From an uncultured Muribaculaceae bacterium (GTDB taxonomy: Bacteria; Bacillota_I; Bacilli_A; RF39; UBA660), in the NCBI GenBank assembly GCA_964652065.1, contig CAZYZU010000002.1:1-36676 (forward strand): DNA of 36,676 nt. The letters run 5' to 3'. The number at the start of each line of letters is the position of its first letter. Within the stretch, counting starts at the first letter, position 1. The notes beneath the pieces were generated by a model. It had not been told where the DNA came from. It did no database searches and was given only the letters and a program-made list of their open reading frames with translations. Positions 2,001 through 36,676 of this stretch are shown one piece after another. The position numbers were made by a program, and so were the translations under genes.

Positions 2001-2008
2001 AAATATTT

Positions 2009-2037: not shown

Positions 2038-2063
2038 AATTAATCATAGAATATAGTGTAAAC

Positions 2064-2092: not shown

Positions 2093-2099
2093 TAACTTG

Positions 2100-2690: not shown

Positions 2691-2762
2691 TTTGTAATAA
2701 TTTATCTATTTTATGATAAAATTGTAGTAATAGATTTATATATATTAAAAGTGAGGATTATA

Positions 2763-3368: not shown

Positions 3369-3485
3369 AGCTAAGGCTCTTTTTCTTTACTTTTTCCTTA
3401 TTTTGTGGTATAATTTACGAACAAAAGGAGGGGTAATATTGTATTTTATATTGATGGTAAAAAAGTTAGATATAATCCTTACAAT

Positions 3486-4829: not shown

Positions 4830-4885
4830 AACTTGTCTTTTTTAGTGTTTTATAGTAAAATCTAATATAGTTTTGAGGTGGAAAT

Positions 4886-6475
4886 ATGTTACAAGTAAAT
4901 AATGTTAGTTTAAAGTTTGGAAAAAGAACTTTATTTGAAGATGTTAATATTAAATTTAGTAATGGTAATTGTTATGGATTAATTGGAGCTAATGGTTCTG
5001 GTAAATCAACTTTTTTAAAAATTTTATCTGGAGAAATTGAAACAACTACAGGTGAGGTTACTATGTCTAAGGGAGAACGTCTTTCAATATTAAAGCAAGA
5101 TCATTATCAATATGATGATATGAAAGTAATAGATGTTGTTATTATGGGTAATGAACGTCTTTATAAAATAATGGAAGAAAAAAATGAATTATATTCTCAT
5201 ACAGAGTTTAGTGAAGCGGATGGAATGCGTCTTGCTAATTTAGAAGCTGAATTTATGGATTTAGATGGTTGGAATGCTGAAGCTGATGCAGCAACTCTTT
5301 TAAATAATTTAGGAGTTAATAGTGATATTCATTATTCTTTAATGAAGGATATTCCTGTAAAGGATAGAGTAAAAGTATTATTAGCAGGGGCTTTATTTGG
5401 GGATCCTGATGTCTTACTTTTAGATGAGCCTACAAACAGTTTAGATATAGAAGCTATTAAATGGTTAGAAGAATTTTTAATTAATTTTAATAATACAGTT
5501 ATTGTAGTTTCTCATGATAGACATTTTTTAAATGATGTTTGTACTCATATTGCTGATATTGATTATAGTAAAATTAAACTTTATGTTGGTAATTATGATT
5601 TCTGGTATGAATCAAGTGAACTTTTACAAAGACAAATGAAGGAATCTAATAAGAAAAAAGAAGATAAGATAAAAGAATTACAATCGTTTATCGCAAGATT
5701 CTCAGCAAATGCATCTAAATCTAAACAAGCTACTTCTCGTAAAAAAATGTTAGAAAAAATTGAACTTGATGATATTGTTCCTTCTTCTAGGAAATATCCA
5801 TATATAGATTTTAAAATAGAAAAACCTGCTGGAAAAGAAATATTAAAAGTTACTAGTTTAACTAAAGAGATTGATGGTAAAAAAATATTTAATAAGATAT
5901 CGTTTAGTATTTTAAAAGGTGATAAGATTGCTGTTATTGCACATGATGATTATGTTAAAACTGCACTTTTCAACATATTAAGTGGAAAAGATAAAGACTA
6001 TAAAGGTATGATTGAATGGGGTAAAACAATTAACTATGGTTATTTACCACAGGATAATACAGATTATTTTAATACTAGTAAAAATATTATGGAATGGATT
6101 GGACAATTTTATAATATTAAAGATGAAACTATTCTTAGGGGATTTTTAGGTAGAATGTTATTTTCTGGAGAAGATGTTTTCAAAAAAGTAAATGTATTAT
6201 CTGGAGGAGAAAAAGCTCGTTGTATGCTATCTAAAATGATGTTAGAAGAGCCTAATTTCTTAATGTTAGATGAACCTACAAACCATTTAGATCTTGAAAG
6301 TATTACATCTTTAAATAAGGGATTAGAAAAATTTAGTGGAGAAGTTATTTTTACTACACGTGATTATGAACTAAATTCAACTGTCGCTAATAGAGTTATT
6401 GAAATATTAGAAGATGGTTCTATTATAGATAGAAGTATTCCATATGAAGAGTTTTTAGAAAAGGAAAAAAAATGA
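4886..6475 (+). CDS. ABC-F family ATPase (YbiT-like), two NBDs and no TM domain
   Basis: NBD1 Walker A GANGSGKST. K/E-rich linker QRQMKESNKKKEDKIKEL. NBD2 signature LSGGEKARC and Walker B LMLDEPTNHLD. Confidence 0.9.
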   Translation: MLQVNNVSLKFGKRTLFEDVNIKFSNGNCYGLIGANGSGKSTFLKILSGEIETTTGEVTMSKGERLSILKQDHYQYDDMKVIDVVIMGNERLYKIMEEKNELYSHTEFSEADGMRLANLEAEFMDLDGWNAEADAATLLNNLGVNSDIHYSLMKDIPVKDRVKVLLAGALFGDPDVLLLDEPTNSLDIEAIKWLEEFLINFNNTVIVVSHDRHFLNDVCTHIADIDYSKIKLYVGNYDFWYESSELLQRQMKESNKKKEDKIKELQSFIARFSANASKSKQATSRKKMLEKIELDDIVPSSRKYPYIDFKIEKPAGKEILKVTSLTKEIDGKKIFNKISFSILKGDKIAVIAHDDYVKTALFNILSGKDKDYKGMIEWGKTINYGYLPQDNTDYFNTSKNIMEWIGQFYNIKDETILRGFLGRMLFSGEDVFKKVNVLSGGEKARCMLSKMMLEEPNFLMLDEPTNHLDLESITSLNKGLEKFSGEVIFTTRDYELNSTVANRVIEILEDGSIIDRSIPYEEFLEKEKK

Positions 6476-13645: not shown

Positions 13646-13719
13646 GGGGCTTTAGCCAAGTGGTAAGGCGTGGGTCTGCAACACCCTGAGCACCGGTTCA
13701 AATCCGGTAGGCCCCTCCA
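13646..13719 (+). tRNA. tRNA-Cys (GCA)
   Basis: Cloverleaf folded by hand. Acceptor GGGGCTT/AGGCCCC, anticodon loop CTGCAAC, T-arm ACCGG-TTCAAAT-CCGGT, encoded CCA. Confidence 0.9.
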
Positions 13720-13762: not shown

Positions 13763-13837
13763 GCAGATGTAGTTTAGTGGTTAGAATACGGCCTTGCCAA
13801 GGCTGTGACGGGGATTCGATTTCCCTCATCTGCTCCA
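13763..13837 (+). tRNA. tRNA-Gly (GCC)
   Basis: Acceptor GCAGATG/CATCTGC, anticodon loop TTGCCAA, T-loop TTCGATT, discriminator T, encoded CCA. Confidence 0.9.
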
Positions 13838-17029: not shown

Positions 17030-17035
17030 ATATGT

Positions 17036-17257
17036 AGATGCATTGATATCGAGGAGTATATAATAAAAATTTTTAGAGAGGTTATGGTTGCTGAAAATAA
17101 CTAATTGATATTATAGAAGGTAGCGATGGAGCATAGTTATTGAAAATAAGTAAATAATTCCGGATAATTCCGTTAAAAATATTGAGATTATTATTTAATA
17201 ATAAATTAAGGTGGTACCACGAACTATTCGTCCTTATAGGATGGGTAGTTTTTTTTT
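17036..17257 (+). promoter_or_regulatory. T-box leader, probable Val specificity
   Basis: Stem I AGAGA bulge (about 17075). Candidate specifier GUA at 17120-17122 in GAAGGUAGC. T-box sequence AATTAAGGTGGTACCACG (17204-17221). Terminator CTATTCGTCC/AGGATGGGTAG plus T9 (17224-17257). Confidence 0.8.
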
Positions 17258-17271: not shown

Positions 17272-18027
17272 ATGGATAGAGCTATTGAAGAGTTTAAAAT
17301 TTATACTGATTCTTATATTGAAATAAGTGATAAATGTGTATTAAAAATAGATCATACTTTTCGAGTCATGGAATTATGTAAAAAGATTGCTTTGAGTTTA
17401 AATTTAAATAAAGAAGACATATCTTTAGCAATGTTATGTGGACTATTACATGATATTGGTAGATTTGAACAATGGAAGAGATATAATACTTTTGTAGATG
17501 GTAAAAGTATTGATCATGGCGATTTAGGAGTAGAAATTTTAACAACAAATAAATTTTTAAGAAAATTTATTGATTCTGAAGAATTTGATTCAATTATATT
17601 AAATAGTGTTTTATTTCATAATAAATATAATATTTCAAATGAATTGAGTGAGCGTGAAAAACTTTTTTGTAAAATAGTTAGAGATGCTGATAAAATTGAT
17701 ATTTTATATTTATATACAATTGGGCATTTAAGTGTTGATACAAATAATGAAATTTTTAGTGATGATGTATTAAATTCTTTAAGAAATAATAAGTTAATAG
17801 AAAGAAAAATGAAAAAGACTAAGGCAGATACTCTATCTGTATCACTGGGATTTGTTTTTGATATTAATTTTAAAAAAAGTATTGAAATATTAAAGAAAAA
17901 TAATTATATAAATAAGGAAATTGATATTTATAAAGAAAAAACTAATAATTTAGATTTTATTAATGAATTAGAAGAAGTTAGATTAATAATAAATAAATAT
18001 ATAGAAAGTAGGTTAGAATTATGTTAG
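17272..18027 (+). CDS. HD-domain phosphohydrolase
   Basis: ATG at 17272 after [18 protein letters not shown] motif. Stop overlaps the valS start (ATGTTAG). Confidence 0.7.
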
Positions 18028-18932
18028 ATAAAAAATATAATCATATAGAAGTAGAAGAGGGTAAATATAATGAATGGATAGAAAAAGGATATTTTTCATC
18101 GGGAGATATGTCAAAGAAACCTTTTTGCGTAGTTATTCCTCCACCAAATGTTACAGGTAAACTTCACTTAGGTCATGCTTGGGATGTAACACTTCAAGAT
18201 ATTATAATTCGTTATAAAAGAATGCAAGGATATGACTGTTTATGGCTTCCAGGAATGGATCATGCAGGTATTGCTACTCAAGCTAAAGTTGATAAAAAGT
18301 TACGTGATGAAGGAGTTAATCCTAGATCATTATCAAGAGAAGAATGGACTAAAAAAGCTTGGGAATGGAAAGATGAATTTGCACAAACTATTCATTCTCA
18401 ATGGGCTAAGATGGGTATTAGTGTTGATTATAATAAAGAAAGATTTACATTAGATGATGGTCTTAATCAAGCAGTTAACAAAGTGTTTATTGACTTATAT
18501 AATAAGGGTTTAATATATAGAGGAGAAAGAATTATTAACTGGGATCCTGTTCAAATGACAGCTTTATCTAATGAAGAAGTTATTTATCAAGATGATCCAG
18601 GGGCATTTTATCATTTGAAATATTTTATTGAAGATAGTGATAAATATTTAGAAGTTGCGACAACTCGTCCTGAAACATTATTTGGCGATACTGCAGTAGC
18701 AGTTAATCCAGAAGATGATAGATATAAAGATTTAATAGGAAAGAATGTTGTTTTACCAATAGTTAATAAGCTAATTCCAATTGTAGGAGATTCTCATGCT
18801 GATCCTGAGTTTGGTACTGGTGTTGTTAAAACGACACCCCTTGGTACAAACTCAATATTTACAAGGGTTAGCGAAGGGATAATGAACATAATTAATCAAT
18901 TATTTATACAAAGAAAAGAGGTAAATGCATAA
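18021..18932 (+). pseudogene. valS: 5' fragment of bacterial-type valS (native codons 1-270, then a 33-codon element-derived tail)
   Basis: [19 protein letters not shown] block ... [11 protein letters not shown]. The frame then diverges into TTPLGTNS... at 18831. The continuation is found at 30840. Confidence 0.9.
18832..18848 (+). repeat. left terminal arm (attL, element side)
   Basis: CGACACCCCTTGGTACA is an inverted partner of 30818..30836. Confidence 0.7.
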
Positions 18933-21349
18933 TGTTAGATAAAAAATATAACGCACAAGAAAAAGAAGAAAAATGGTTAAATTATTGGAAAGAAAATGGA
19001 GTTTATGATTTTAAACCAGATCAAAGAGAAGTTTTCTCAATAGATACTCCACCACCAACAGTTAATGGAAAAATACATATTGGACATATTTTTTCATATT
19101 CACAAACTGAAATGATTGCAAGATATAAAAGACTAAGAGGGTATAATATCTTTTATCCATTTGGATTTGATGATAATGGATTACCTAGTGAAAGATTAGT
19201 AGAAAAAGAACAAGGCAAAAAAGCACATGAAATTGGAAGAGAAGAATTTTCAAAATTATGTTATGAAACTACTGATAAATATGAGGCTGATTTTCAAAAC
19301 TTATTTAGTAAAATGGGAGTTAGTACAGATTGGAATATTCATTACAAAACGGTAAGCCCATCAACAATTAAAATTAGTCAAACATCATTTTTAGATTTAA
19401 TTGATAAAGGACATTGTTATCATAAAGAAAGTCCTGCATTATGGTGCAATGAATGTTTAACATCAATCGCACAAGCAGAACTTGAAACAAAAACAATTAA
19501 AACAACATTTAATTATGTTAATTTTAAAACAGTTGAAGATGGTGAAGAATTTACAATAGCAACTACTAGACCTGAATTATTACCAGCCATTGTATGCGTA
19601 TTTGTAAATCCTAAAGATGAAGAACATAATCATTTAATTGGAAAAACTGCTCATATTCCAGTTATAGATGTTGAAGTACCAATTATGGGTGATGAAAAAG
19701 TAGCAATTGATAAAGGTACAGGAGTTGTTATGTGCTGTACATTCGGTGATCAAACTGATATTGAATGGTGGAAGAAATATAATTTACCACTTAAGTATAT
19801 TTTTACTGCAGATGGTAAAATTATTGATTCTGTACCAAATTATGGTGGAATGAAAATAAAAGCAGCTAGAAAACAAATTGTTGAAGATTTACAGGCAGGT
19901 GGCTTTATTGTAAAAATAGAAGAATTAGAACACGAAGTACAAACACATGAAAGATGTGGAAGAGAAGTAGAATATTCAGTAATGAAACAATGGTTTATTG
20001 ATATTATGAACCATAAAAAAGATTTCTTGAAAATTGGTAATGAAATAAAATGGCATCCTGAACATATGCATAATAGATATAATGAATGGGTTGAAAATAT
20101 TTTATGGGATTGGTGTATTTCAAGACAAAGATATTTTGGTGTACCATTTCCAGTATGGTATTGTAAGGATTGTGGAGAACCTATCTTTGCTAAAAAAGAA
20201 GATTTACCAATTAATCCACTAACAACTAAACCACATATTGATAAATGTCCTAAATGTAATTGCAGTGAATTTGTTGCTGAAACTGATGTAATGGATACTT
20301 GGGCAACTTCATCTGTTACACCACTTATTAATATGAGATACGGTGAAAAAGAAAATTATGAAGACATATTAAAACCAATGAGTATAAGAACAAATGCATC
20401 TGAGATTATTAGGACATGGGATTTTTATACAATTGTAAAAAGTTTTTATCATTTTGGTATGCGTCCATGGAATAATGTTATGATTTCAGGATTTGTTATG
20501 GCAAGTAAAGGTGAAAAGATTAGTAAAAGTAAAGGAAATGCTAAAGTTGAACCAATAGATGTTATTAATCAATATTCTGCCGATGTAGTTAGATATTGGG
20601 CTGGATCAGGAAGACTTGGAACTGATATTGTATTTAGTGATGAAACTTTATTAAGAGGAAGAAAATTAGTTAATAAAATATGGAATGTCTCAAAATTTAT
20701 TGAAATGCATTTACAAGATTATGAAGATAAAGAGTTTAATAATTTTGAATATGTAGATAAATGGATATTGGGAAAATTTCAAGAAATGGAAGAAGGATTT
20801 GTTAAATATTTAGATGATTATGAAGTTGGATTAGCACTTAATCATTTAGAAAAATTCTTTTGGAATTTCTGTGATAATTATATAGAAATAGTTAAGCATA
20901 GACTATATAGACCTGAAGAATTTGGAGATGAACCAAGATATTCAGGACAAAAAACTGTATTTACAATATTATATAAATTATTACAAGACTTTAGTATATT
21001 CTTCCCATTTATTACTGAAGAAATATATCAAGAACTATATCATGGTAATAAATCAGTTCATTTAACTGAAATTAAACCATTAAATTTTGATTTTAGTAAA
21101 GAAATTATTAATGGTGATAAAATGATTGATATTATAAGTCAAGCAAGAGGAGAAAAATCAAATAATAATTTATCTTTAAAAACTCCTATAAAAATATTAG
21201 AATTAGGTGTTAATGAAGAACTTAAAAATGCTATAGAATCTTCTATTAAAGATTTTAAAGCAACATTATTTATAAAAGATTTAAAAATAGATATTTCTAA
21301 TGATGATAAAATAAATAAAATTGAATTAGAAATTGAAACAACAGAGTAA
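18932..21349 (+). CDS. valS: valine--tRNA ligase, divergent type-2 (archaeal/actinobacterial-like), element-encoded
   Basis: 805 aa. HIGH NGKIHIGHIFSY. KMSKS-like GEKISKSKGN. FPFGFDDNGLPSE, GTGVVMCCTFGDQTD, WCISRQRYFGVPFPVWYC. No C-terminal coiled coil. ATG overlaps the upstream TAA. Confidence 0.85.
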   Translation: MLDKKYNAQEKEEKWLNYWKENGVYDFKPDQREVFSIDTPPPTVNGKIHIGHIFSYSQTEMIARYKRLRGYNIFYPFGFDDNGLPSERLVEKEQGKKAHEIGREEFSKLCYETTDKYEADFQNLFSKMGVSTDWNIHYKTVSPSTIKISQTSFLDLIDKGHCYHKESPALWCNECLTSIAQAELETKTIKTTFNYVNFKTVEDGEEFTIATTRPELLPAIVCVFVNPKDEEHNHLIGKTAHIPVIDVEVPIMGDEKVAIDKGTGVVMCCTFGDQTDIEWWKKYNLPLKYIFTADGKIIDSVPNYGGMKIKAARKQIVEDLQAGGFIVKIEELEHEVQTHERCGREVEYSVMKQWFIDIMNHKKDFLKIGNEIKWHPEHMHNRYNEWVENILWDWCISRQRYFGVPFPVWYCKDCGEPIFAKKEDLPINPLTTKPHIDKCPKCNCSEFVAETDVMDTWATSSVTPLINMRYGEKENYEDILKPMSIRTNASEIIRTWDFYTIVKSFYHFGMRPWNNVMISGFVMASKGEKISKSKGNAKVEPIDVINQYSADVVRYWAGSGRLGTDIVFSDETLLRGRKLVNKIWNVSKFIEMHLQDYEDKEFNNFEYVDKWILGKFQEMEEGFVKYLDDYEVGLALNHLEKFFWNFCDNYIEIVKHRLYRPEEFGDEPRYSGQKTVFTILYKLLQDFSIFFPFITEEIYQELYHGNKSVHLTEIKPLNFDFSKEIINGDKMIDIISQARGEKSNNNLSLKTPIKILELGVNEELKNAIESSIKDFKATLFIKDLKIDISNDDKINKIELEIETTE

Positions 21350-21354
21350 TTTTA

Positions 21355-21382
21355 AAACATAGATAATTTCTATGTTTTTTTT
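21355..21382 (+). terminator. intrinsic terminator after element valS
   Basis: AAACATAG-ATAATTT-CTATGTTT followed by a T-run. Confidence 0.7.
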
Positions 21383-21407
21383 GAACAAAATTGGAGGTGA
21401 TAAATAA

Positions 21408-22165
21408 ATGACAGTTTTTAAAATTGAAAAACAAAGGATTTTACTGTAATGAGTAATCATCATTTAAGAGATAGAAACTTAACATATAAGGCTAAAGGAT
21501 TGTTATCATTCATGATATCTTTACCAGAAGATTGGGATTATTCTTTAGCAGGTTTGACAGCGATAAGTAGAGAAAGTAAGGATGGAATAAGATCAATTTT
21601 AAAAGAATTGCAGGATAATCATTACTTGGAAATAGAAAAAGTAAGAGGAGAAAAAGGATATTTTGAATATAATTATTTAATATATGAAAAACCACATTTT
21701 TTGTCATATGAAATTGACAATCAAAATCCATGTATGGAAAATCCACATCTGGATGAACCAGATATGGAAATATCAATACAAATAAATACTAATATATTAA
21801 ATACTAAGGAACAAATAGATAAAGGTGATAAAACAAAATCATCTTTTTTTATTGCTGAAGAACATAATGGCTTAACATTAAATTTGATTAATCGTGGTTA
21901 TATTAATGAATCTGATTTACAAGTTTTTTACTATGATAAAATGTATGATGATTTATTAGATGATGATAATTCATATAGAGATTTGTTAATTATATCTGAT
22001 TATGTTGTAAGTAGAGTAATAAAAAGAGATTTCAAAGATGATGATGGTAATGTAATAAAAAATAAATTTGGTTATTTAAAAGAGGGGATATATGTAAATA
22101 TCAGAAGAAGTCATTTGGATTTAGATGATTTATGGGGATTAAATGATGATGATATTGAAAGATAA
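21408..22165 (+). pseudogene. wHTH replication-initiator-like protein (plasmid/ICE Rep type), N-terminus frameshifted
   Basis: Strong RBS GGAGGTGA before ATG 21408 gives MTVFKIEKQRILL*. The main ORF (21449..22165, MSNHHLRDRNLTYKAKGLLSFMISLPEDWDYS) lies in another frame, and its upstream extension reads KDFTV. Confidence 0.55.
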
Positions 22166-22293
22166 TTTTTGTTTATCCAATTTTATATGATAAAAGAAAA
22201 TTATATTATAATACTAAAAACAGAATTATCCTTTATTGTGATAACTTTTTAATATAGAAAAATTGATATAGTAAAAAAATAAACTAAAATGTA

Positions 22294-22322
22294 TTGACTT
22301 AATTCAATAATAGTAGTATTAT
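22294..22322 (+). promoter_or_regulatory. promoter of leader ORF/RSH/YcaO/precursor unit
   Basis: TTGACT, 17-nt spacer, TATTAT. Confidence 0.5.
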
Positions 22323-22356
22323 TTAACTTAAATTATTTGAAAGGGGATTCTAAACT

Positions 22357-22482
22357 ATGAATAAACTCTTATTAGAAAAACAATTTAATAAAAATAGTTT
22401 TTATTACAAAATCATTTGCAACAATGACTGTTTATGCCTTTCCCTTGATAATATTACTATGTGTAAAAGAGTTCGACTTTAA
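22357..22482 (+). CDS. 41-codon Cys-rich small ORF (leader peptide or second RiPP substrate)
   Basis: MNKLLLEKQFNKNSFYYKIICNNDCLCLSLDNITMCKRVRL. RBS AAAGGGGA. The stop codon lies inside the 5' arm of the downstream terminator. Absent from the ORF track. Confidence 0.4.
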   Translation: MNKLLLEKQFNKNSFYYKIICNNDCLCLSLDNITMCKRVRL

Positions 22483-22511
22483 AATTATTATGTTTTAAAG
22501 TCGTCTTTTTT
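22473..22511 (+). terminator. intrinsic terminator/attenuator immediately upstream of the RSH gene
   Basis: CGACTTTAAA ... TTTAAAGTCG stem followed by TCTTTTTT. Ends 18 nt before ATG 22529. Confidence 0.65.
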
Positions 22512-22528
22512 ATAAGAAGGAGTATTTT

Positions 22529-23968
22529 ATGAGTGAAATTACTGTTGAATATTTATTAAAAAAGATAAAAGAATATAATCCAGAAGAAGAAAAGTCGATA
22601 ATGAAAGCTTATGAATTTGCCAATAATCTACATAGTGGTCAAATTAGACAGAGTGGTGAACCTTATATATCTCATCCATTGAATGTTGCTTATATTCTTG
22701 CTGAAATGAATGCAGATAAAGATACAATTTGTGCAGGATTATTACATGATACTTTGGAAGACACCAATACCACAAAAGAAGATATTTCACATGAATTTAA
22801 TGCTACTGTTGCTAACTTGGTTGATGGAGTAACAAAAATGAGCAAAATGAATTTTTCTTCTAAGCAAGCACAAAATATGGCAAACACAAGAAAAATAATT
22901 ACAGGAATTACTGAAGATGTTAGAATAATAATTATAAAGTTAGCAGATAGATTACATAATATGAGAACATTAGAATTTAAAAGTGAGTTTAAACAAAAAG
23001 AAAATGCACTAGAAACTATGGAAATATTTGTTCCACTTGCTTACTACATTGGTGCATATAGAATAAAATCTGAGTTAGAGGATTTATCTCTACAATATTT
23101 AAAACCAGATATGTATAAGACAATAAAGGAAAAACAACAAAAAATAGAATATGAAAGCAGAGATTGCTTACAAGAAATGTTAGGAAAAATTAAATCAATG
23201 TTAGAAGATAAGGATATTCCTAATGAAATTAAAGTTAGAACTAAAAATATTTATGGAATATACAAAAGATTAAATGATGGACATAAATTATCTGATATTC
23301 ATGATTTACTAGCATTGAAAATAATGGTAGATGAGATTGATAATTGTTATAGAACTTTAGGTATGATTCATCAAGAATATCATCCAATCAATGATAAGTT
23401 TAAAGATTATATTTGTAATCCAAAAACAAATATGTATAGATCATTACATACTACTGTTTTTGGACCTGATGATAGATTAGTACAAACACAAGTAAGAACA
23501 TTTGATATGGATAAGATTGCATCTTTTGGATTAACAGCATATTGGGCAGTACAAAAAGGGAAAGCAAGAGATGTTATGCAAAAAGATTTAAAAGAAAAAT
23601 ATCAGTTTTTTAAATCTTTAACTGAAATCAATACAATGTTTGGGGATAATCAACAATTTGTAAGTCAAGTTAAATGCGAATTATTTGCCGACAAAGTTTA
23701 TGCATACACCACCAAAGGTGATATAATTGAACTTCCTAAAGGTTCAACACCAATTGACTTTGCTTATAAAATTCATACTGATATTGGAAACACAATGGTT
23801 GGGGCTTTTGTAAATGATGAATATGTTCCTGTTGATTATATGTTAAGGAACAAAGATAGGGTAAAAATAATTACTGATGATTTATCATTTGGTCCAAGAA
23901 ACGATTGGGAAGAAAAGGCGCAAACCACATATGCAAAGAGAAAAATAAAAGAATTTAGTAAAAAATGA
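22529..23968 (+). CDS. truncated RelA/SpoT homologue (HD hydrolase + synthetase-like + TGS; no C-terminal regulatory domains)
   Basis: HPLNVA...LLHDTLEDT, DRLHNMRTL (hydrolase). VRTKNIYGIYKRL, DLLALKIMV, YRSLHTTV, QTQVRT (synthetase-like). TGS VYAYTTKGDIIELPKGSTPIDFAYKIH. Ends at the position where the helical/ZFD/ACT region normally begins. Confidence 0.85.
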   Translation: MSEITVEYLLKKIKEYNPEEEKSIMKAYEFANNLHSGQIRQSGEPYISHPLNVAYILAEMNADKDTICAGLLHDTLEDTNTTKEDISHEFNATVANLVDGVTKMSKMNFSSKQAQNMANTRKIITGITEDVRIIIIKLADRLHNMRTLEFKSEFKQKENALETMEIFVPLAYYIGAYRIKSELEDLSLQYLKPDMYKTIKEKQQKIEYESRDCLQEMLGKIKSMLEDKDIPNEIKVRTKNIYGIYKRLNDGHKLSDIHDLLALKIMVDEIDNCYRTLGMIHQEYHPINDKFKDYICNPKTNMYRSLHTTVFGPDDRLVQTQVRTFDMDKIASFGLTAYWAVQKGKARDVMQKDLKEKYQFFKSLTEINTMFGDNQQFVSQVKCELFADKVYAYTTKGDIIELPKGSTPIDFAYKIHTDIGNTMVGAFVNDEYVPVDYMLRNKDRVKIITDDLSFGPRNDWEEKAQTTYAKRKIKEFSKK

Positions 23969-23984
23969 AGTTTGAGGTGATGAT

Positions 23985-26111
23985 ATGATAAATTGGAAAA
24001 AATTCAAACCTATACTTGTTGTTCCTTCGATACCTACTGAAGATGGAATTAGATTTTTATGTCAAGATCAGCAATTGGATATTAATGGAGAAATAGTACC
24101 AATTTTGTGGAAAATTCTTTCTTTATGTAATGGATATAGAACATTAGATGAAATATTTGATGAATCTAAGATAGAATATGATCTTATAAAAGATATTTTA
24201 TCTGAGTTAAATGAACAGAACCTGATTTTTGATGCGTGCGAACAATATAAATATTTTCATTCTATCAGCAGTTATCCTGCAAAATATTTGCAATTATTAA
24301 GTGAAGAAGAAGTAATAAATCATAAAAAAAGTCAGAGAAAAGAAGTTAAAAAAGGAAAAAGTTTATCTTTTAATAATGATCAGGAATCATGTTTATATAA
24401 ATTGCAACTTAATAGAAAGTCCTGTAGAAATTTTTCAAAAGATAGAAAGTTATCATTAAATCAGCTTGGAAATATATGTAATTATGCGTATTCTTTAAAA
24501 AGACATGCAACCCCAAGTGGTGGAGCTCTTTATCCTTTAAAAATCTTTTGTATCGTAACACAAAATCAAAAAGATTTTGATTCTGGTTATTATGAATATG
24601 ATAATGAAAATGATAAGTTGGTACTATATAATTGTAATCCTGATAATGAGCAATTAAAATATTGCTATAATGATGAAAAATTAGCTTTCAATTCTTCTAT
24701 ACAAATAGTTATATGTGCAGACTTTGAAAGACAAGCATATAAATATTCAAATAGAGGTTATAGATTATCTCTAATAGAAGCAGGACAAGTAGCACAAAAT
24801 ATATCTTTATATTGTGAAGAAAAAGGACTATCAACCTGTGAACTTGGTGGTCTGCTTGATATTCCACTTGCTAAGGAATTAGATATATATGATAGTAATA
24901 TTTATCCTGTTTTAGGAATAGCAATTGGATACTCCGATTCTAAAGAAAATTTTAGTTATTCACAATTTTTGTCTAAGTTAACCAATGAATTTGTTGGCGA
25001 AAATAAACCAATAAAAAGTTTTGGAATTAATTACTTGAATATTTTTGATTCATCATTTTATGGTGCTTGGGCAAAATATGGAAATGATTCAAAAAGAATT
25101 GCTGGTGCAACAGCTCTATCTTATAATGAGTCAATTTGCAAAGCAATTATTGAAGGATATGAAAGATATCGTTCTGAAAAAGTAAGAATAGATTACGTTG
25201 GAGAATGTCAAAATTCAAAAAGATATTTTAATCCTGATGATATTGCACCTTTATCAAGCAAACAAAGAATATTGTGGGGATTAAAAAATTATACATTTGG
25301 GGATAAAATAGAATGGACAAAAGATATAACTGGCAAGTATTACATTCCAACGGATTTTGTTTTTTATGGACATAATAAAAAAGAAAAATTATTTTTAAGT
25401 GATTCTTCTGGTATAGCAGCATATTCGGATTATGAAACAGCAAAAAAAAGAGCTCTATTAGAACTTATTGAAAGAGATGCAATAATAAGAAATTGGTATA
25501 ATCAAATATCTGCACCAAAAGTTAATCCAGATATAGTATCTCAACATATAAAAAATAGAATTGAATATTGGAAAAATAAAGGAAGAACAATTCATATAAT
25601 GGATTTAGATTCAATATCTGCATCGGTTTTTCTTGTAGTTATAGTAAGTGATGAATATCCTTGCTTTGTAAGTGGATCATCTGCAGTTATTGATACGGCC
25701 GATAGTGCAATGCTAAAAGCATTGCAAGAAGCAGAATACAATTTGCTGTTAGCAATAGAAAATCCTTTTGAAAATGCACCTGAAATTGACAAAATAAAAA
25801 CCCCTCAAGATCATGGAAGGTATTATCATTTTTTAGAGAATGCAGATAAGATATCTTGGCTATGGAAAAGTAAACTTATTTCTGATAAACAAATTAAAAA
25901 AATTACAGATTTATCTAAGGCAATTGATGAATTAGATACTGTATTTGTTGATTTATCAGATAAGGACTCATCTATAAAAGTAGTTAGAGCTGTTTCTAGA
26001 AAACTTGTTCCTATAAGTTTTGGATACCATAGGGATTATTATTTGCATCATATATTACAAGAAAATGGATTTGATGAAAAAATAAGAAATCTTCCACATT
26101 ATTTTGCTTAA
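23985..26111 (+). CDS. fusion protein: PqqD-like RRE + SagB-type (nitroreductase-fold) dehydrogenase + YcaO cyclodehydratase
   Basis: N-terminus ILWKILSLCNGYRTLDEIFDES...LNEQNLIF (RRE-like). RKSCRNFS...TPSGGALYPLKIF...YKYSNRGYRLSLIEAGQVAQN...CELGG (SagB). AIIEGYERYRS...SSGIAAYSDYETAKKRALLELIERDAI...PQDHGRYY (YcaO). Confidence 0.85.
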   Translation: MINWKKFKPILVVPSIPTEDGIRFLCQDQQLDINGEIVPILWKILSLCNGYRTLDEIFDESKIEYDLIKDILSELNEQNLIFDACEQYKYFHSISSYPAKYLQLLSEEEVINHKKSQRKEVKKGKSLSFNNDQESCLYKLQLNRKSCRNFSKDRKLSLNQLGNICNYAYSLKRHATPSGGALYPLKIFCIVTQNQKDFDSGYYEYDNENDKLVLYNCNPDNEQLKYCYNDEKLAFNSSIQIVICADFERQAYKYSNRGYRLSLIEAGQVAQNISLYCEEKGLSTCELGGLLDIPLAKELDIYDSNIYPVLGIAIGYSDSKENFSYSQFLSKLTNEFVGENKPIKSFGINYLNIFDSSFYGAWAKYGNDSKRIAGATALSYNESICKAIIEGYERYRSEKVRIDYVGECQNSKRYFNPDDIAPLSSKQRILWGLKNYTFGDKIEWTKDITGKYYIPTDFVFYGHNKKEKLFLSDSSGIAAYSDYETAKKRALLELIERDAIIRNWYNQISAPKVNPDIVSQHIKNRIEYWKNKGRTIHIMDLDSISASVFLVVIVSDEYPCFVSGSSAVIDTADSAMLKALQEAEYNLLLAIENPFENAPEIDKIKTPQDHGRYYHFLENADKISWLWKSKLISDKQIKKITDLSKAIDELDTVFVDLSDKDSSIKVVRAVSRKLVPISFGYHRDYYLHHILQENGFDEKIRNLPHYFA

Positions 26112-26157
26112 CATTTAAAATGTTAATATATATTTATATATGAAAGGAGGTGATATT

Positions 26158-26271
26158 ATGGATAAGAAAGTTTTAAATTTCAAAAGTGTTAAATATACAA
26201 AATCAAACTCATTAGCAGCATGCGTAACTGGTGGTGGTGGTTGTGCTTGTGATGATGGTACAGGCGAATAA
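26158..26271 (+). CDS. 37-aa RiPP precursor peptide candidate (azol(in)e-type core)
   Basis: MDKKVLNFKSVKYTKSNSLAACVTGGGGCACDDGTGE. Near-consensus RBS GAAAGGAGGTGA 5 nt upstream. Terminator follows. Absent from the ORF track. Confidence 0.75.
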   Translation: MDKKVLNFKSVKYTKSNSLAACVTGGGGCACDDGTGE

Positions 26272-26288
26272 TCATTATTTGAGTTATA

Positions 26289-26317
26289 ACATCAGATTTT
26301 AATCTGGTGTTTTTTTA
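26289..26317 (+). terminator. intrinsic terminator after precursor gene
   Basis: ACATCAGAT / ATCTGGTGT stem followed by T7. Confidence 0.7.
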
Positions 26318-26371
26318 TAATTAATTATAATTATCATCTGATATTAATTGGGTAAGTAAAAAATGTAGCTA

Positions 26372-26815
26372 CTAACTACATTTTTTTGTCTTTCCTAGGA
26401 TATCATCTATTGAAATTTTATAATATTTTGCAAAATCTACTAATAAAGAAGTAAGTATTAATGTTTTTCCTAATTCATACTTAGAATAATTTGACTGATC
26501 TGTTTGTATGATTTTAGCAATTTTTTCTTGGGTATCATTATGCTTTTTTCTAATGTTTTTTAGATTGTTAGCAATGATATTTATATTTAATTCCTGATTT
26601 ATTATTTCTATATTTTTATTATTAGATAATCCACAAATATAATCTATACTTATATTAAAATAATTGACAAAATCATTTAGTTTTAATAATGGTATTGTGT
26701 CAATTCCATTTTCCCAACCTGCATAGGTAGATCTACTAACACCTAAAATTTGTGCCATTTCATTTTGTGTTTTATCAAAGTTTTCCCTAATATCTTTCAT
26801 TCTATTATAATCCAT
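26372..26815 (-). CDS. XRE-family regulator with two tandem HTH domains
   Basis: TQNEMAQILGVSRSTYAGWENG and TQEKIAKIIQTDQSNYSKYELG repeats. Confidence 0.85.
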   Translation of the reverse strand: MDYNRMKDIRENFDKTQNEMAQILGVSRSTYAGWENGIDTIPLLKLNDFVNYFNISIDYICGLSNNKNIEIINQELNINIIANNLKNIRKKHNDTQEKIAKIIQTDQSNYSKYELGKTLILTSLLVDFAKYYKISIDDILGKTKKCS

Positions 26816-26920
26816 GTAAACACCTCTTTAATAATTTTCTCATTTATAAATAAATAATTTAAAAAGTGTCGGGTATAGTCCTAAAATGTGATATAATATT
26901 TAAATGAAAGAGGTGATTTT

Positions 26921-27214
26921 ATGTACTTATCATTTAGAAATTTTTTTGGTATTGCAGTCAAAAGTTTATTAATTACTTTATGTATTGCTTTGTGTTTTGG
27001 GTTAGTGATTATTAATTGTAATTTTGCAGAATATATATGTAAAATTACAAGTATTCCAAATAATCTTGCATTAACTGTTATGAGTCCTGGTTTTTATAAT
27101 GAAGTAGTTATTATTACTAGTGTATTTGAAATAGGATTTTTAGTTTATATTTGTAATAAACTTCTTAAGTATCCTAAAATAAATGAATTGTACGAAAGAA
27201 TCTATTATTTATAA
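26921..27214 (+). CDS. small polytopic membrane protein (unknown; immunity candidate)
   Basis: 97 aa with 2-3 hydrophobic helices. RBS AGAGGTGA. Confidence 0.5.
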   Translation: MYLSFRNFFGIAVKSLLITLCIALCFGLVIINCNFAEYICKITSIPNNLALTVMSPGFYNEVVIITSVFEIGFLVYICNKLLKYPKINELYERIYYL

Positions 27215-27299
27215 ATATTATTAGTTAATATTGTTTACATATCGTAGTTTTAAATATATAATAGAAAACTACTAGCGAAAAGTATTGGAAGGTTATAAT

Positions 27300-27659
27300 A
27301 TGAATAATGAAGAATATGAAATGTTTTTTAATTTAATTGCAGTATTAGAAAAAGAAAAGAGAATAAATAAAAAATTTTACAATTCACCAGATACCAAATT
27401 TATTAAAAAAAATGAATTTGTTCTTTCTAATGATGTAAAAAAGGGATTAATATTATTTGAGTATAAAAGATATTTTTTATTAGATATTTATATAAGTGAT
27501 AGTAACAATATCTTAAATGGTCTATTAAACCTTAAAATAGAATCAAAAGAAGATGCAGAAATAGAATATAATAATTACATAGAATATGTAGAAAAAACAA
27601 GTGTCTTGCAGATAATGAAAAATAAAATAGAAAAAAATAATCAACCCCTTATAAAATAA
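27300..27659 (+). CDS. hypothetical protein
   Basis: About 119 aa from ATG 27300. No family recognised. Confidence 0.45.
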   Translation: MNNEEYEMFFNLIAVLEKEKRINKKFYNSPDTKFIKKNEFVLSNDVKKGLILFEYKRYFLLDIYISDSNNILNGLLNLKIESKEDAEIEYNNYIEYVEKTSVLQIMKNKIEKNNQPLIK

Positions 27660-27944
27660 GGACAAAACAAATAAAAAATCGAAAAAGTGCTTGAATTGGT
27701 ACTATAAGGTGTTTTTATTGTTCCAATATTATGCCTTAATTGGTACGAAAAAAGTGTTGATTTATCCTTGTCAAGTAGTATAATAATGTAAAATGAAATA
27801 AATGTGAGAAGAAAAAACACTTCTTGCATTTTTTTTGTTTAAAAAGTGTTGACAAGATAATCAAAAGAATATAAAATAAAAAATAATTTTATATGTAACT
27901 TTGATGGCAGTATTTTTCAAAGAACAATGTTGGGAGGAAACTCA

Positions 27945-28049
27945 ATGATATATGGGGATATTACTGCTTTTTTATTTAAAAATCTTAATGAACGATTAAT
28001 TGATTATCATGGATTTTCAACACCGATATTGAAAGAGAGATTGTTTTAG
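27945..28049 (+). CDS. 34-codon small ORF ending in the terminator stem
   Basis: MIYGDITAFLFKNLNERLIDYHGFSTPILKERLF. RBS GGGAGGA 6 nt upstream. Absent from the ORF track. Confidence 0.3.
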   Translation: MIYGDITAFLFKNLNERLIDYHGFSTPILKERLF

Positions 28050-28084
28050 GGACTTCTAGCCCCCAAAATTGTCTCTCTTTTTTC
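28032..28084 (+). terminator. long-stem intrinsic terminator/attenuator before the ArpU-like gene
   Basis: 16-bp stem AAAGAGAGATTGTTTT/AAAATTGTCTCTCTTT with one mismatch, 17-nt loop, then TTTT. The RBS and ATG 28101 follow immediately. Confidence 0.65.
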
Positions 28085-28100
28085 GTAGGAGGGTAAGGTT

Positions 28101-28556
28101 ATGGAAATATTATTACGAAAAGAAACAATAAGAGAGTTTGATGTAACATCATGTAAGGAGAATTTAGAAAAAATAATAACAGAGTATATTAAAGCAAAAT
28201 ACAGTTATATAAATATTAAAAAGCAGGGAGAAGAATATTACAATTCATCATCTGGTGTTAATTATGATTATAGACCTGAATGTTTTACTATTAAATATAG
28301 TGATAGAGTTGCTAATAAGATTGGTTTTAAAATAGATAATGAAAGAGAAGCAATAGAAGTAGGATATAAAATCAATGAATTATATAAAAAGTTTACTGAC
28401 GGAGAAAGAGATTTCTTTGATATTATTTTGCTTAATGGTAATGCTCAAAAATTTGTAGAAGATAAATACAGATTATCCAAACATGGTCTTGAGCCAATAA
28501 AACAAAGTTGTATAGTAAAATCAGCACTTCATTTTGGAGTTGCAGTTTATAGATAA
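28101..28556 (+). CDS. possible ArpU-family / sigma region-4-like transcriptional regulator
   Basis: 151 aa. Size, position and the C-terminal helix-rich segment (ERDFFDIILLNG...YRLSKHGLEPIKQSCIVKSALHFG) resemble phage ArpU regulators. Weak call. Confidence 0.3.
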   Translation: MEILLRKETIREFDVTSCKENLEKIITEYIKAKYSYINIKKQGEEYYNSSSGVNYDYRPECFTIKYSDRVANKIGFKIDNEREAIEVGYKINELYKKFTDGERDFFDIILLNGNAQKFVEDKYRLSKHGLEPIKQSCIVKSALHFGVAVYR

Positions 28557-28810
28557 TATTTCCATAGGGGCTTTATGCTCCTTTTATTTTGGAACAATTT
28601 ATGAGTTTATAGGGATCTCATTGTCAAAAAACTATGAAAGGAATGATTAAAAATGATGCAATTTATTTTAAAAATACCATAAATTAGTTTTTTTATTAAA
28701 AAACGCTTGCAAAAATCATGTTTTTAAGTGATTAATATATTAGAAGAAATATCTTATATAAAGCCATTTAAACGGCATATTTCAAATGTTAAGTTGGAGG
28801 TTGATAAGTT

Positions 28811-30802
28811 ATGAGCAAAAAAAGAAAGCGATTGTTATATTTGATTATTTTAGTTCTATTTTTTTTAATTATAATAGTATCTTTTATTTTTATTAATAAT
28901 ATAAAAAATAATAATAAAGATGTTAATGAATTAAATTCAGAACAAGAAGTTGAAAATGTTAAAGAAAGCAAAGAAGATGATGATGAACAAATAATAGAAG
29001 ATAAGGAAGATAAAATAGATGATGTTAATGAAACATCTGATGGCACTTCAAAGAACAATAGTAATAATGGTTCATCAAGTAATTATAATGTTACTACTGA
29101 TTCAACAAACAATACTTCTTCAAATAATAATAAAGTAACTCCACAATCTCCGCCTAATAATGATGAAACAATAAAAAAAGAAGAACCAGTACAACAAGCA
29201 CCACAAGAAGATTTAAGTAAGGTTGCAAATCCAAATGATTTCTTCTATTCAATAACTGGTGGTAAAGTAGAGTTTAACTCTAATACTGGTTGTATGTCAG
29301 CAGGAGATGAAATAGCACTTATAGATGTTGTTGATGTACAGTATTATAGATGCTATGAAGTATCATCAAAAGCAAATACTATTATGGGTTATTTCCTAAA
29401 TGTATTTTGTGCAAGTGGAAAAATAAAAGTTGTAATTGTAAAAAACTTATCTCGTTTAGGTAGAAGTAATTTTGAATGTGGTTATTATATGGATTATTAT
29501 TTTCCATCAGCCAATGTTAGATTTATGACTGTTCAAGAAGAAGTTGATACAAATGATGCATATAGTAGTAACAATGAATATGCACCTTTAAACAATTTTA
29601 TGAATGAAAAATATTCACGAGATTTATCAAAGAATATAAAAAATTCTAAAAGAGTAAAACAAAAAGCAGGGGAATATATTGGTAGCAATAATTCTCCATA
29701 TGGTTATAAAAAGGATCCTGCTGATAAACACCATCTAATAATAGATGAATATTCATCAACTATAGTTAAAAAGATATATGAATGGTATTTAGAAACAGGT
29801 TCTCAGGGAGAAGTTAGAAAAAGATTGTTTGAAAATAAAATTCCAACACCTGCTATATATCGCAATTATAAAACTATGACAGAAAAATTAAATAATCCAT
29901 ATCAATGGTCTGGAAGAACTATTAGATATATTTTAACAAGTCAAATGTATATTGGTAATATGGAACAACACAAGTATGAGAAAAAAAGTTTTAGAAGTAA
30001 AAAACTTTCTAGAGTTCCTAAGGAAAAATGGATTATAGTAGAAAATAAACATGAACCTATTATTGATAAAGATACATGGGATAAAGTTCAAAATATGATT
30101 AAAAACAATTATAAGCGGGCATCTACAAGACCACCAGAGTTATTTACAGGTATGCTTATATGTCATGAATGTAAACATAGAATGAGTATATCTACTAGAG
30201 ATAAAATTGGAAAAGATGGTACTTTTTATCATCATCAATACACCCAGTGCAATTATTATAGAAAAAATAGGAATTTAGGGGTTTGTTCTCTTCACTCAAC
30301 AAATTATTTAGAACTTGAAAAAGATGTTTTAAAGAAAATTGATGAGATTTGCAATAAATTTATAAAACTAATTAGTTATCAAAAAGTTACTAATGGAACA
30401 AAAATGGAAATGAGTTCTTATGAAAGAATATTAAATGAAAAAATTATTAAATTAGAATTTAATTTATCAAAAATTGATTGTCAAATTGAAAAATTATATA
30501 TGGATAGGTTGAATGATGTTATTTCAGTAGACACATATCAAAAAATATCTGCTAAATTTGAAACTGAAAAGGAACAATTAAAAACAACTCTAGAAGAAAT
30601 GAAAAATACATATATTCAATATCAACAAGATAATAATCAACAAACAATTTTATCAGCAAAAGAATTATCGGAAATGTATATAAAGCATAGAAAGAAACTT
30701 GATAGAGAATTGATAATGAAAATAGTAGATAGAATAGAAATACATGAAGATAAAAGTATAGATTTATTTCTAAAAATTAAGCCATTAGAACAGTTAATGT
30801 GA
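28811..30802 (+). CDS. chimeric ORF: TM/low-complexity exported-protein N-terminus fused to a large serine recombinase lacking the catalytic-Ser segment
   Basis: From about aa 203: GKIKVVIVKNLSRLGRSNFE, FMNEKYSRDLSKNIKNSKRVK, PYGYKKDPADKHHLIIDE, zinc ribbon CHECKHRM...CNYY..C, coiled coil. The first ~200 aa are unrelated (TM helix, D/E- and N/S-rich tracts). Confidence 0.8.
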   Translation: MSKKRKRLLYLIILVLFFLIIIVSFIFINNIKNNNKDVNELNSEQEVENVKESKEDDDEQIIEDKEDKIDDVNETSDGTSKNNSNNGSSSNYNVTTDSTNNTSSNNNKVTPQSPPNNDETIKKEEPVQQAPQEDLSKVANPNDFFYSITGGKVEFNSNTGCMSAGDEIALIDVVDVQYYRCYEVSSKANTIMGYFLNVFCASGKIKVVIVKNLSRLGRSNFECGYYMDYYFPSANVRFMTVQEEVDTNDAYSSNNEYAPLNNFMNEKYSRDLSKNIKNSKRVKQKAGEYIGSNNSPYGYKKDPADKHHLIIDEYSSTIVKKIYEWYLETGSQGEVRKRLFENKIPTPAIYRNYKTMTEKLNNPYQWSGRTIRYILTSQMYIGNMEQHKYEKKSFRSKKLSRVPKEKWIIVENKHEPIIDKDTWDKVQNMIKNNYKRASTRPPELFTGMLICHECKHRMSISTRDKIGKDGTFYHHQYTQCNYYRKNRNLGVCSLHSTNYLELEKDVLKKIDEICNKFIKLISYQKVTNGTKMEMSSYERILNEKIIKLEFNLSKIDCQIEKLYMDRLNDVISVDTYQKISAKFETEKEQLKTTLEEMKNTYIQYQQDNNQQTILSAKELSEMYIKHRKKLDRELIMKIVDRIEIHEDKSIDLFLKIKPLEQLM

Positions 30803-30817
30803 TGTATGATTATGATG

Positions 30818-30836
30818 TGTACCAAATGGTTTCGTG
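30818..30836 (+). repeat. right terminal arm (attR, element side)
   Basis: TGTACCAAATGGTTTCGTG. Its reverse complement CACGAAACCATTTGGTACA matches the left arm (outer 8/8, then 6/9). Confidence 0.7.
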
Positions 30837-32558
30837 AAAATTACTCCTGCACATGATCCTAATGACTTTGAAGTTGGTAATAGACATAATTTAGAACGTG
30901 TAGTTGTTATGAATAAAGATGCTACTATGAATGAAGCTGCAGGTAAATATTGTGGAATGAGTCGTGAAGAATGTCGCAAGGCTTTACTTAAAGATTTAAG
31001 TGATGCTGATTTACTTATAAAAGAAGAAAAAATGGTTCATAGTGTAGGTCACTCTGAAAGAAGTAATGCTGTTGTTGAACCATATCTTTCTAAGCAATGG
31101 TTTGTTAAGATGAGACCTTTAGCAGATAGAGTATTAGAAAATCAAAAAAACAAGGATACTAAAGTTAATTTTGTACCTCCTAGATATGAAAAAACTATGA
31201 ATCACTGGATGACTATTACTTATGATTGGTGTATTTCTCGTCAGCTTTGGTGGGGACATAGAATTCCTGCTTGGTATAAGGATGATGAAGTTAAGGTTCA
31301 AGTTGAAAATCCTGGGGAAGGTTGGGTACAAGATACTGATGTATTAGACACTTGGTTTAGTAGTGCTTTATGGCCATTCTCATCACTTGGTTGGCCAAAT
31401 GATATGAGTTTAGTTAATAGATATTATCCTACTAATGTTTTAGTAACTGGATATGATATTATTCCATTTTGGGTTAATCGTATGACTTTCCAAGGCTTAG
31501 AATTTACAAATACTATACCTTTTAAGGATTGCTTAATTCATGGACTTATCAGGGATAAAATAGGCCGTAAAATGAGTAAGAGTTTAGGTAATGGAGTAGA
31601 TCCAATGGATGTTATTGATAAATATGGATGTGATTCCTTAAGATACTTTTTAACTACTAACTCGGCACCTGGAGCTGATCTTCGTTATGATGAAGAAAAG
31701 ATAAAATCTAGTTGGAATTTTATCAATAAATTATGGAATGCATCTCGTTTTGTACTTATGAATATAGAAGATTTAAATGATGGTTCTATAGATAAAAATT
31801 TATTAACTATTTCTGATAAATGGATATTAACTCGTAAAAATCTACTTATAAAAAGTATAATTAAAAGTATGGATAAATATAATTTCCATAATGTTGGTAA
31901 TGAATTATATAAGTTTATTTGGGAAGATTTCTGTGATTCATATATCGAACTTTCTAAATCTAATATGAGTCTTAATACAAAAAAAGTTTTACTTAATGTA
32001 TTAACTGATATTTTAAAACTTCTTCATCCATTTATGCCTTATGTTACAGAAGAAATTTATAAAATGTTACCTATAAAAGAAAAAGAATCTATTATGATTA
32101 CAACATATCCAGAATATAATAGGGAATATGTATTTATGAGTGATGAAGATATGCTTTCTAAAGTATTAGAAGATATCGTTGCGATAAGAAATGTTAAAGC
32201 AGTTAATAAAATTGGAAAAGATGCTTTAGTTAACTTTACTTGTAGTGAAGAATTGATTCCTATTTATGCGTCTCAATTAAAAATAAAAGAAGAAAATTTA
32301 TGTAGTGATGATCCAGATAATAAAGTTACTACAAATTATAAATCTAAATATATTGATATTACTTATTTCTTTGATGAAGAAATAGTTGATCAAGATGCTT
32401 TATTAGAAGAGATTAAAAAATTAGAACAATCAATTGAAAGACGTAAGAAATTACTTTCAAATGAAAATTATGTTAATAAAGCTCCTAGTAATGTAGTAGA
32501 AGCTGATCGTAAAAAGTTAGCTGAAGAAGAAGAAAAGTTAGAATTATTAAAAAAATAG
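30834..32558 (+). pseudogene. valS: 3' fragment of bacterial-type valS (native codons 271-842)
   Basis: [44 protein letters not shown]-terminal coiled coil. No RBS before the GTG. Confidence 0.9.
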
Positions 32559-36600: not shown

Positions 36601-36676
36601 GGGGCATTAGCTCAGCTGGGAGAGCGTCACGTTTGCACCGTGAAGGTCAGCGGTTCGATCCCGCTATGCTCCACCA
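36601..36676 (+). tRNA. tRNA-Ala (TGC)
   Basis: GGGGCAT acceptor with the G3:U70 pair (GGGGCAT/ATGCTCC), anticodon loop TTTGCAC, GGTTCGATCC T-arm, encoded CCA. Ends at the window edge. Confidence 0.9.

Follow-up and report, generated by a model that had tools for sequence, protein, structure and literature searches.

The valyl-tRNA synthetase (ValRS) gene of the host, valS, lies in two pieces about 12 kb apart in contig CAZYZU010000002.1 of an uncultured bacterium (positions 1 to 36,676; this whole 36,676-nt stretch is hereafter the window), which raises the question of what split an essential gene and whether the intruder can still leave. The window DNA, of Firmicute origin and with about 25% GC, was read with genetic code 11. 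The insert is opened by a second, complete ValRS gene and closed by an open reading frame (ORF) at 28811-30802 on the forward strand, which an original prediction, made from the sequence alone, had described as a serine recombinase deprived of its catalytic serine and fused in frame to a membrane-anchored ORF, so that the element might be locked in valS. We consider it very probable that a valS-targeting integrative and conjugative element (ICE), which carried its own ValRS, underwent one large internal deletion and that this 663-aa ORF is the scar left by it.

The ORF is real, with an ATG start, a GGAGG Shine-Dalgarno (SD) sequence 8 nt upstream and a TGA stop, and the truncation of its recombinase was confirmed. 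Its residues 1-203 derive from an unrelated gene, here called gene X, and the remainder is an in-frame portion of a large serine recombinase (LSR) equivalent to residues 88-548 of intact homologues. The Resolvase family of Pfam (PF00239) was matched at aa 199-288 through profile positions 58-144 of 145 only, followed by the Recombinase domain (PF07508, aa 317-433, E 7e-23) and the zinc ribbon (PF13408, Zn_ribbon_recom, aa 444-510, E 1.4e-8), both of which had been expected to be retained. The best 120 listed homologues, almost all of 533-566 aa and most of 545-553 aa, were at most 79% identical and covered no more than about 70% of the query (aa ~200-663). In alignments to 7 and to 47 intact homologues the homology began at G203 (GKIKVV, GKIKVVIVKNLSRLGRS; nt ~29417), in agreement with the start at about residue 203 proposed earlier, and was colinear with them through the final residue. 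The 87 N-terminal residues of the intact proteins, with the motif Y-x-R-L-S-x-E-D ... E-S-x-S-I-x-N-Q, were lost. At the DNA level, blastn similarity to the intact locus L001 began abruptly at window position 29416, corresponding to codon ~88 of L001, and continued into valS.

Serine recombinases use as nucleophile a serine that could be traced through proteins of known structure. The catalytic domain of TnpX (PDB 2mhc) aligned to the window protein from chain residue 72 only and to the intact homologue P0003 from residue 12, and the R-R-S region of SPbeta SprA aligned with F-R-L-S of P0003, in which the RLS nucleophile is S22 (a residue number read from the alignments). No N-terminal remnant was left elsewhere, since tblastn searches with seven intact N-termini in all six frames of the window matched the GKIKVV region only. 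Pfam, the intact homologues, TnpX and the six-frame search thus agreed that the segment with the catalytic serine is absent, and neither the ORF nor the other frames of the window held the complete Resolvase match that would have spoken for an intact enzyme. Judging from these alignments, about three-fifths of the catalytic domain, counted from its N-terminal end, are gone from the integrase together with the nucleophile. What is left (29417-30802, forward strand) holds the C-terminal half of that domain (LSRLGR block onward, alpha-E region included) and, after it, the Recombinase domain (~29759-30109), the zinc ribbon at ~30140-30340 and a putative coiled-coil/C-terminal region.

The remnant still has a Recombinase domain with a zinc beta-ribbon, and its gene still adjoins an att site with imperfect inverted-repeat arms (stop at 30802, attR at ~30810-30850). 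The N-terminal catalytic domain with a nucleophilic serine (R-x-S) is missing, and because this is the defining catalytic feature the protein should not, on sequence grounds, be annotated as a functional integrase. Its NCBIfam scores of 113 and 73 bits were far under the respective equivalog cut-offs of 900 and 375, which places it in a different subfamily. Each of 18 integrase homologues with at least 60% identity was followed by a valS C-terminal fragment starting at the same residue, the host ValRS being only 40-64% identical, and by this association the integrase family is specific for valS.

The N-terminal partner (28811-29416, forward strand) is also a recognizable protein. Residues 1-203 matched a stand-alone, membrane-anchored family of surface proteins of 220-244 aa, typically 235-240 aa (E 1e-43). 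The match took in the transmembrane (TM) anchor, linkers that are acidic and N/S-rich, and a domain of ~75 aa that contains Cys residues (~75% identical). Fusion to a membrane-anchored ORF, as proposed, was borne out in this way. The additional segment of about 60 residues, which had been taken as unrelated, proved to be the conserved C-terminal domain of the same family. The family is characterized by a TM anchor, a low-complexity linker and a ~90-aa C-terminal domain with four conserved cysteines, of which the window has the anchor, the linker and the domain as far as FCASG; family members end in ...FCENGNCNSRYKSMINISxYD, and the window copy reads ...FCASG and then KIKVV. Integrase sequence here stands in place of the final ~17 aa, and with these the fourth of the cysteines is lost. 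The single strong TM segment (aa 8-28) stands behind MSKKRKR, from which the positive-inside rule predicts an N-in/C-out signal anchor. Gene X has no Pfam family, and an AlphaFold2 model of the family had a predicted local distance difference test (pLDDT) score of 41, with the TM helix alone confident. Homology and gene order show that the partner is a genuine gene, one that opens the conjugation operon of Firmicute ICEs.

The gene order of relatives indicates what once lay between the two partners. In all ten loci of the gene X family, gene X was followed by a SpaA/TED adhesin of 900-1000 aa, a sortase, a single-stranded DNA-binding protein (SSB) and DUF8208, with a VirB4/TraC-like ATPase beyond DUF8208 where the loci extended far enough, and was preceded by a divergent repressor with a double helix-turn-helix (HTH) and small ORFs. 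The seven closest intact integrase loci (74-79% identity) all had an ORF of ~167 aa upstream of the integrase and, where they extended, also a SNF2 protein of 2,117-2,143 aa and a TraG/VirD4-like coupling protein; the valS C-terminal fragment came after the integrase in the closest loci, except in L039, whose contig ends first. Both gene orders were found in one metagenome-assembled genome (MAG), SRR5519181-bin.25. Its contig L040 carries the valS N-terminal fragment, a homologue of the element-borne ValRS (91%), an HTH_36 ORF, a repressor, ORFs like o97 and o151 of the window (described below), a gene-X-like ORF of 208 aa and an adhesin, and its contig L013 carries a coupling protein, the SNF2 protein, ORFs of 104 and 166 aa, the integrase and the valS C-terminal fragment. 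With 18.0 kb past gene X in L040 and 11.1 kb before integrase codon 88 in L013, at least about 29 kb separate the two breakpoints in that MAG. None of this is left in the window, where tblastn of the L040 adhesin and of the L013 coupling and SNF2 proteins gave no match and Pfam scans of the element ORFs detected no type IV secretion system (T4SS) or relaxase family. The T4SS ATPase, coupling protein and relaxase that mark an autonomous ICE are all missing.

The two parents meet at 29411-29419 (forward strand), within the interval of 29395-29420 predicted for the breakpoint. DNA alignments showed that both parent families read GAA-xxT-GGx-AA at this place, with a microhomology core of TGGAA, and the joint is by these alignments a microhomology-type illegitimate deletion. 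In the sequence of events that we favor, illegitimate recombination at GAAxxTGGxAA would have joined codon ~203 of gene X to codon ~88 of the integrase, at the attR end. Lost between them would be the adhesin, sortase and SSB genes, those for type IV secretion, for the coupling protein and for the SNF2 protein of ~2,100 aa, together with the small ORFs beside the integrase, candidates for recombination directionality factors (RDFs), and the first 87 integrase codons with the nucleophilic serine. That the product stayed in frame would be a matter of chance (1 in 3). The promoter and SD sequence of gene X probably still drive expression of the fusion, which would be unable to cleave DNA and, if signal-anchor insertion occurs, would have its DNA-binding part on the wrong side of the membrane. 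The remnant of ~12 kb (about 18.83-30.84 kb) would then be incapable of leaving by itself, and the host would stay dependent on the ValRS of the element.

Some observations weigh against this reconstruction or limit it. Treating L040 and L013 as the two ends of one ICE is an assumption, no intact sibling of this element was found among GTDB representatives and JGI metagenome contigs, and the nearest relatives of gene X share no more than 43-49% identity with it; the size of the deletion in this lineage and its occurrence as a single event are therefore extrapolated from relatives. Gene X and the integrase were not found together on any GTDB contig, and the link between them rests on L040/L013 and on module synteny. 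The ORF is fully open and without decay, which would also fit a retained function, and the intact att sites leave room for excision in trans.

The last point bears on whether the element is locked. At attL (18820-18860, forward strand) the host sequence GGTACTGGTGTTGTTAAAAC is followed by the P' arm GACACCCCTTGGTACAAAC, which is kept in 12 relatives, and at attR (30810-30850, forward strand) the P arm TGTACCAAATGGTTTCGTGAAAAT, kept in 13 relatives, is followed by the host sequence TACTCCTGCACATGA. The joints fall between GTTGTTAAAAC and GACACCCCTTGGTACAAAC at attL and between TGTACCAAATGGTTTCGTGAAAAT and TACTCC at attR, and the P and P' arms, TGTACCAAATGG and CCCTTGGTACA, form an imperfect inverted repeat. 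Both sites look intact by comparison with these relatives. A related serine integrase, encoded by a paralogous or incoming element and assisted by an RDF, might hence excise the remnant in trans, and related valS-targeting ICEs are widespread in similar habitats. We regard this as unlikely: no other recombinase gene was found within the 36.7-kb window, a related ICE could not settle in the occupied attB, and relatives later lost both the att sites and the valS fragments. Contigs of four runs contained no attB or attP joint over 18000-31500, which at their low depth is weak evidence; the attB/attP 'joints' that were listed had sides of just 20-21 nt in AT-rich DNA and were treated as spurious. 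The earlier claim of a locked element and a permanent ValRS swap consequently held as far as cis-encoded excision is concerned, the serine being gone, and has to be softened with regard to permanence, given that both att arms are conserved. With both att sites, ICE-derived regulatory genes and a truncated integrase present and the transfer genes absent, the element resembles a cis-mobilizable element (CIME), and is likely a non-autonomous, CIME-like remnant unable to excise or transfer alone.

A smaller ancestor was also considered, namely an integrative and mobilizable element (IME) in which gene X stood directly upstream of the integrase, so that only ~400 bp were deleted and a conjugation module was never present. 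The lack of an intact sibling in the collections searched would suit this proposal, as would the cargo of the window, a RelA/SpoT homologue (RSH) and a YcaO-nitroreductase, which differs from that of L040, and ICE modules are known to shuffle. None of the ten gene X loci, all of which hold the adhesin operon, had an integrase beside gene X, however, and none of the seven close integrase loci, with their ~167-aa ORF, had gene X upstream; in the valS-ICE of L040 the gene-X-like ORF precedes the adhesin. An IME ancestor is improbable in the light of these loci.

Still less probable is selection of the chimera as a new protein, which might, tethered to the membrane and catalytically dead, bind att sites and so block excision or interfere with related elements that come in. 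The 663 open codons with a strong SD sequence could be seen as a sign of use, and so could the presence of the lineage in several environments. The recombinase remnant has nine private substitutions among 47 homologues, fewer than in comparably isolated intact proteins, and none at invariant integrase positions. The architecture is nonetheless unique, with listed integrase matches covering at most 70% of the query and gene X matches of 147-244 aa, the gene X part has lost its last conserved Cys, and the positive-inside N-terminus predicts that the recombinase part would be exported or misfolded. An open frame at the joint has a one-in-three chance of arising without selection, and recency explains the lack of decay equally well, the split valS fragments being undecayed too. 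From the undecayed remnant and the open valS halves, insertion and deletion both appear to be recent; that the remnant is still constrained is a less likely explanation.

An assembly chimera of two elements of the metagenome, conceivable for a window that is one metagenomic contig and a protein cluster with one member on one contig, can practically be dismissed, given that Logan per-run contigs from two studies crossed position 29416 with no differences (X1 record 4, 29355-30000; X2 record 8, 29277-29444; X3 record 11, 29222-29482; X1 and X2 being bioreactor runs and X3 a manure sample of another study) and that the sequence common to both parents at the joint is shorter than 12 nt and therefore could not mislead a k-mer assembler. 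The exact 37-nt junction pattern had no matches in GTDB species representatives or in JGI metagenome contigs, and outside runs X1-X3 and relatives of these the fusion has so far not been encountered. The idea that the gene is split by design, or that an inversion rebuilds the integrase, was rejected: the window holds no piece resembling a 5' exon, and the partner is a complete foreign gene.

The host valS N-terminal fragment (18021-18932, forward strand; 303 aa) is native up to ...GTGVVK, and the C-terminal fragment (30834-32558, forward strand) has a frame open from 30816; both halves are still open and undecayed. Upstream, an HD-domain gene (17272-18027) stands between valS and the T-box leader of their operon (17034-17238, forward strand; 134.7 bits), whose specifier position is GUA (Val) by alignment to the Rfam consensus. 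This leader is now located 5' of the valS N-terminal fragment and of the replacement ValRS of the element (ValRS2), both of which it would have controlled since the insertion. ValRS2 (18932-21349, forward strand; 805 aa) has a HIGH motif at residue 49 and KISKS at 529. The gene starts ~100 nt inside attL (18828-18935), with an ATG that shares nucleotides with the TAA stop of the truncated host fragment (TAATG), and the ~100-nt spacer and the SD sequence in front of it are kept in relatives. From this arrangement, the ValRS of the element looks built for expression from the host valS operon.

Downstream of ValRS2, an HTH_36 ORF (21449-22165) was colinear with residues 8-254 of its 255-aa homologue in L040 and is full length relative to it; the frameshifted Rep-like gene that had been cited in support of a fixed element was not corroborated. 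It is followed by a 360-nt gap (22166-22528) in which neither an ORF nor a match was found. The cargo (22529-26111) consists of a 479-aa RSH, in which HD, synthetase and TGS domains were recognized, and of a nitroreductase-YcaO fusion of 708 aa that looks like an azoline/azole-forming enzyme; an RSH and YcaO pair also follows ValRS2 in L042 (76% and 65% identity, respectively). In another ICE locus of the gene X type, L006, a TyrRS-like gene and a class II synthetase gene (tRNA-synt_2b plus HGTP_anticodon) were observed at 1602-4943, just outside the repressor module, which hints that synthetases as cargo or targets may be a wider habit of this ICE family.

The ICE regulatory module (26372-28556) is syntenic with the gene X loci and comprises the double-HTH repressor on the minus strand (26372-26815) and the ORFs o97 (26921-27214), o124 (27285-27659) and o151 (28101-28556). 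Identities to the gene X loci were 61-69% for the repressor, 40-56% for o97 and 28% for o151. Between the module and gene X lies a conserved, presumably regulatory intergenic region (28557-28810, forward strand) with a terminator-like hairpin (28566-28582), a near-invariant block (28598-28642), a micro-ORF encoding MMQFILKIP before its stop (28653-28682) and a promoter-like block (28684-28736; TTGCAA-17-TGATTAAT). When window positions 28598-28682 were compared with L003 (7778-7872), L006 (7463-7543), L012 (5178-5272), L008 (5563-5601) and L040 (19628-19657), stretches of 37-44 nt were 97-100% identical, in contrast to 28-46% amino acid identity of the flanking proteins. The block holds a hairpin-like ATGAG...CTCAT; the micro-ORF has 9-12 codons, always ends in (L)KIP-stop and is preceded by an SD sequence in relatives. 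Rfam gave no meaningful match in this conserved region, which could act as a stalling leader peptide or as a regulatory site of the conjugation operon. The promoter-like block (TTGCAA, 17 nt, TGAT(A/T)AAT) also occurs in L001 (8746-8798) before the small-ORF/integrase operon, with 85% identity over 53 nt, suggesting that transfer and excision are co-regulated in this ICE family. A sigma-70 promoter scan yielded 21 sites against 19.7 expected and is uninformative in DNA of 25% GC.

Outside the valS locus, the window contains a full-length OLE (ornate large extremophilic) RNA at 2090-2697 (376 bits), followed by a 205-aa membrane ORF (2751-3368) at the position expected of the OLE-associated protein. 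Rfam also identified three tRNA genes, two of them adjacent (13646-13716 and 13763-13834) and one at the window end (36601-36673).

The fate of such insertions can be followed through ValRS2. In a collection with one genome per species, at least 585 loci matched, and the ValRS2 homologues of the best 80 among them had 82-91% identity. Undecayed native valS N-terminal fragments were 50-74% identical to that of the window, as against 83-91% for the ValRS2 of the same loci, a contrast that we take to reflect horizontal spread of ValRS2 rather than shared descent. States of the locus were compared at the same chromosomal position, defined by the HD-domain gene upstream and by o149 and radC downstream. 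A full valS N-terminal fragment and ValRS2 with ICE genes were present in L040, L043, L044, L049, L074-L077 and L099, and eroded pieces of the N-terminal fragment in L048, L051 and L080. L042 has ValRS2 with cargo alone and a stub of the valS C-terminal fragment, its RSH and YcaO being those compared with the window above; in L062, L091 and L096 the valS C-terminal fragment follows ValRS2 within ~0.8 kb with no integrase, and in L059, L065, L070 and L082 ValRS2 is directly flanked by host genes, the old valS having vanished without trace. The window belongs to an early-to-middle stage of this decay series.

The deletion might accordingly be read as the 'locking' step of a recurrent ratchet, in which insertion of a valS-ICE is succeeded by loss of integrase and transfer genes and by erasure of native valS, until the mobile ValRS has become permanent; for us the evidence for and against this reading is evenly balanced. 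In this reading the ICEs split the essential native valS and put their own ValRS within attL, ~100 nt from its joint, where it would come under the T-box operon of the host, and in many gut and bioreactor lineages of Bacilli and Clostridia the end point may be a mobile ValRS that replaces the ancestral enzyme at the same locus. A more exotic variant would have the dead fusion protein kept as an att-binding or interference factor.

The fusion itself is an ordinary decay scar, as in many decaying ICEs and prophages. The value of the locus is that of a dated intermediate, with valS halves, att sites and integrase remnant undecayed, yet its own exit routes lost. Related loci, in which both the element and the old valS are progressively reduced, outline a stepwise, testable route to the horizontal replacement of an essential aminoacyl-tRNA synthetase. 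Phylogenies have led to the inference of replacements of this kind, which are rarely caught in progress. The analysis also defines a serine integrase family whose attB is conserved and lies within the valS motif GTG(V)VK-ITPAHD. In the literature searched in full text, no description of valS-targeting ICEs or of this fusion was found.

Comparison with known systems places the locus between several of them. The C-terminal 461 aa resemble TnpX of Tn4451 (PDB 2mhc), SprA/YokA of SPbeta (PDB 9dxh), CcrB and XisF in their LSR architecture and in a gene that adjoins an att site; in contrast to LSRs of the TnpX/SprA type, the window protein lacks the first ~87 residues, leaving TnpX residues 1-71 without counterpart, and carries a foreign membrane-anchored polypeptide instead. 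CIMEs and other deletion derivatives of ICEs have been described for the ICESt1/ICESt3 family of Streptococcus thermophilus. Like them, the element is an ICE-derived island that kept its att sites and cargo and lost conjugation and recombination by internal deletion, but it differs in a serine rather than tyrosine integrase and in interrupting an essential gene for which it supplies a replacement. With a serine integrase, an incoming ICE is not expected to accrete at attL or attR. SXT/R391 integrates into prfC and supplies a new 5' end. The window shares with it the insertion within a housekeeping translation gene and a substitute expressed from host signals; here, however, a complete divergent paralogue rather than a short restored end replaces the gene, and integrase function would also be lost. 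Intervening elements such as skin in sigK, SPbeta in spsM and gin in gerE are excised by serine recombinases so that the gene is rebuilt (PMC5595907). As with these elements, an LSR-bearing element splits a coding sequence that precise excision would rebuild; in those cases the recombinase is intact and excision is its function, whereas in the window the recombinase appears dead and a replacement copy takes over from the split gene.

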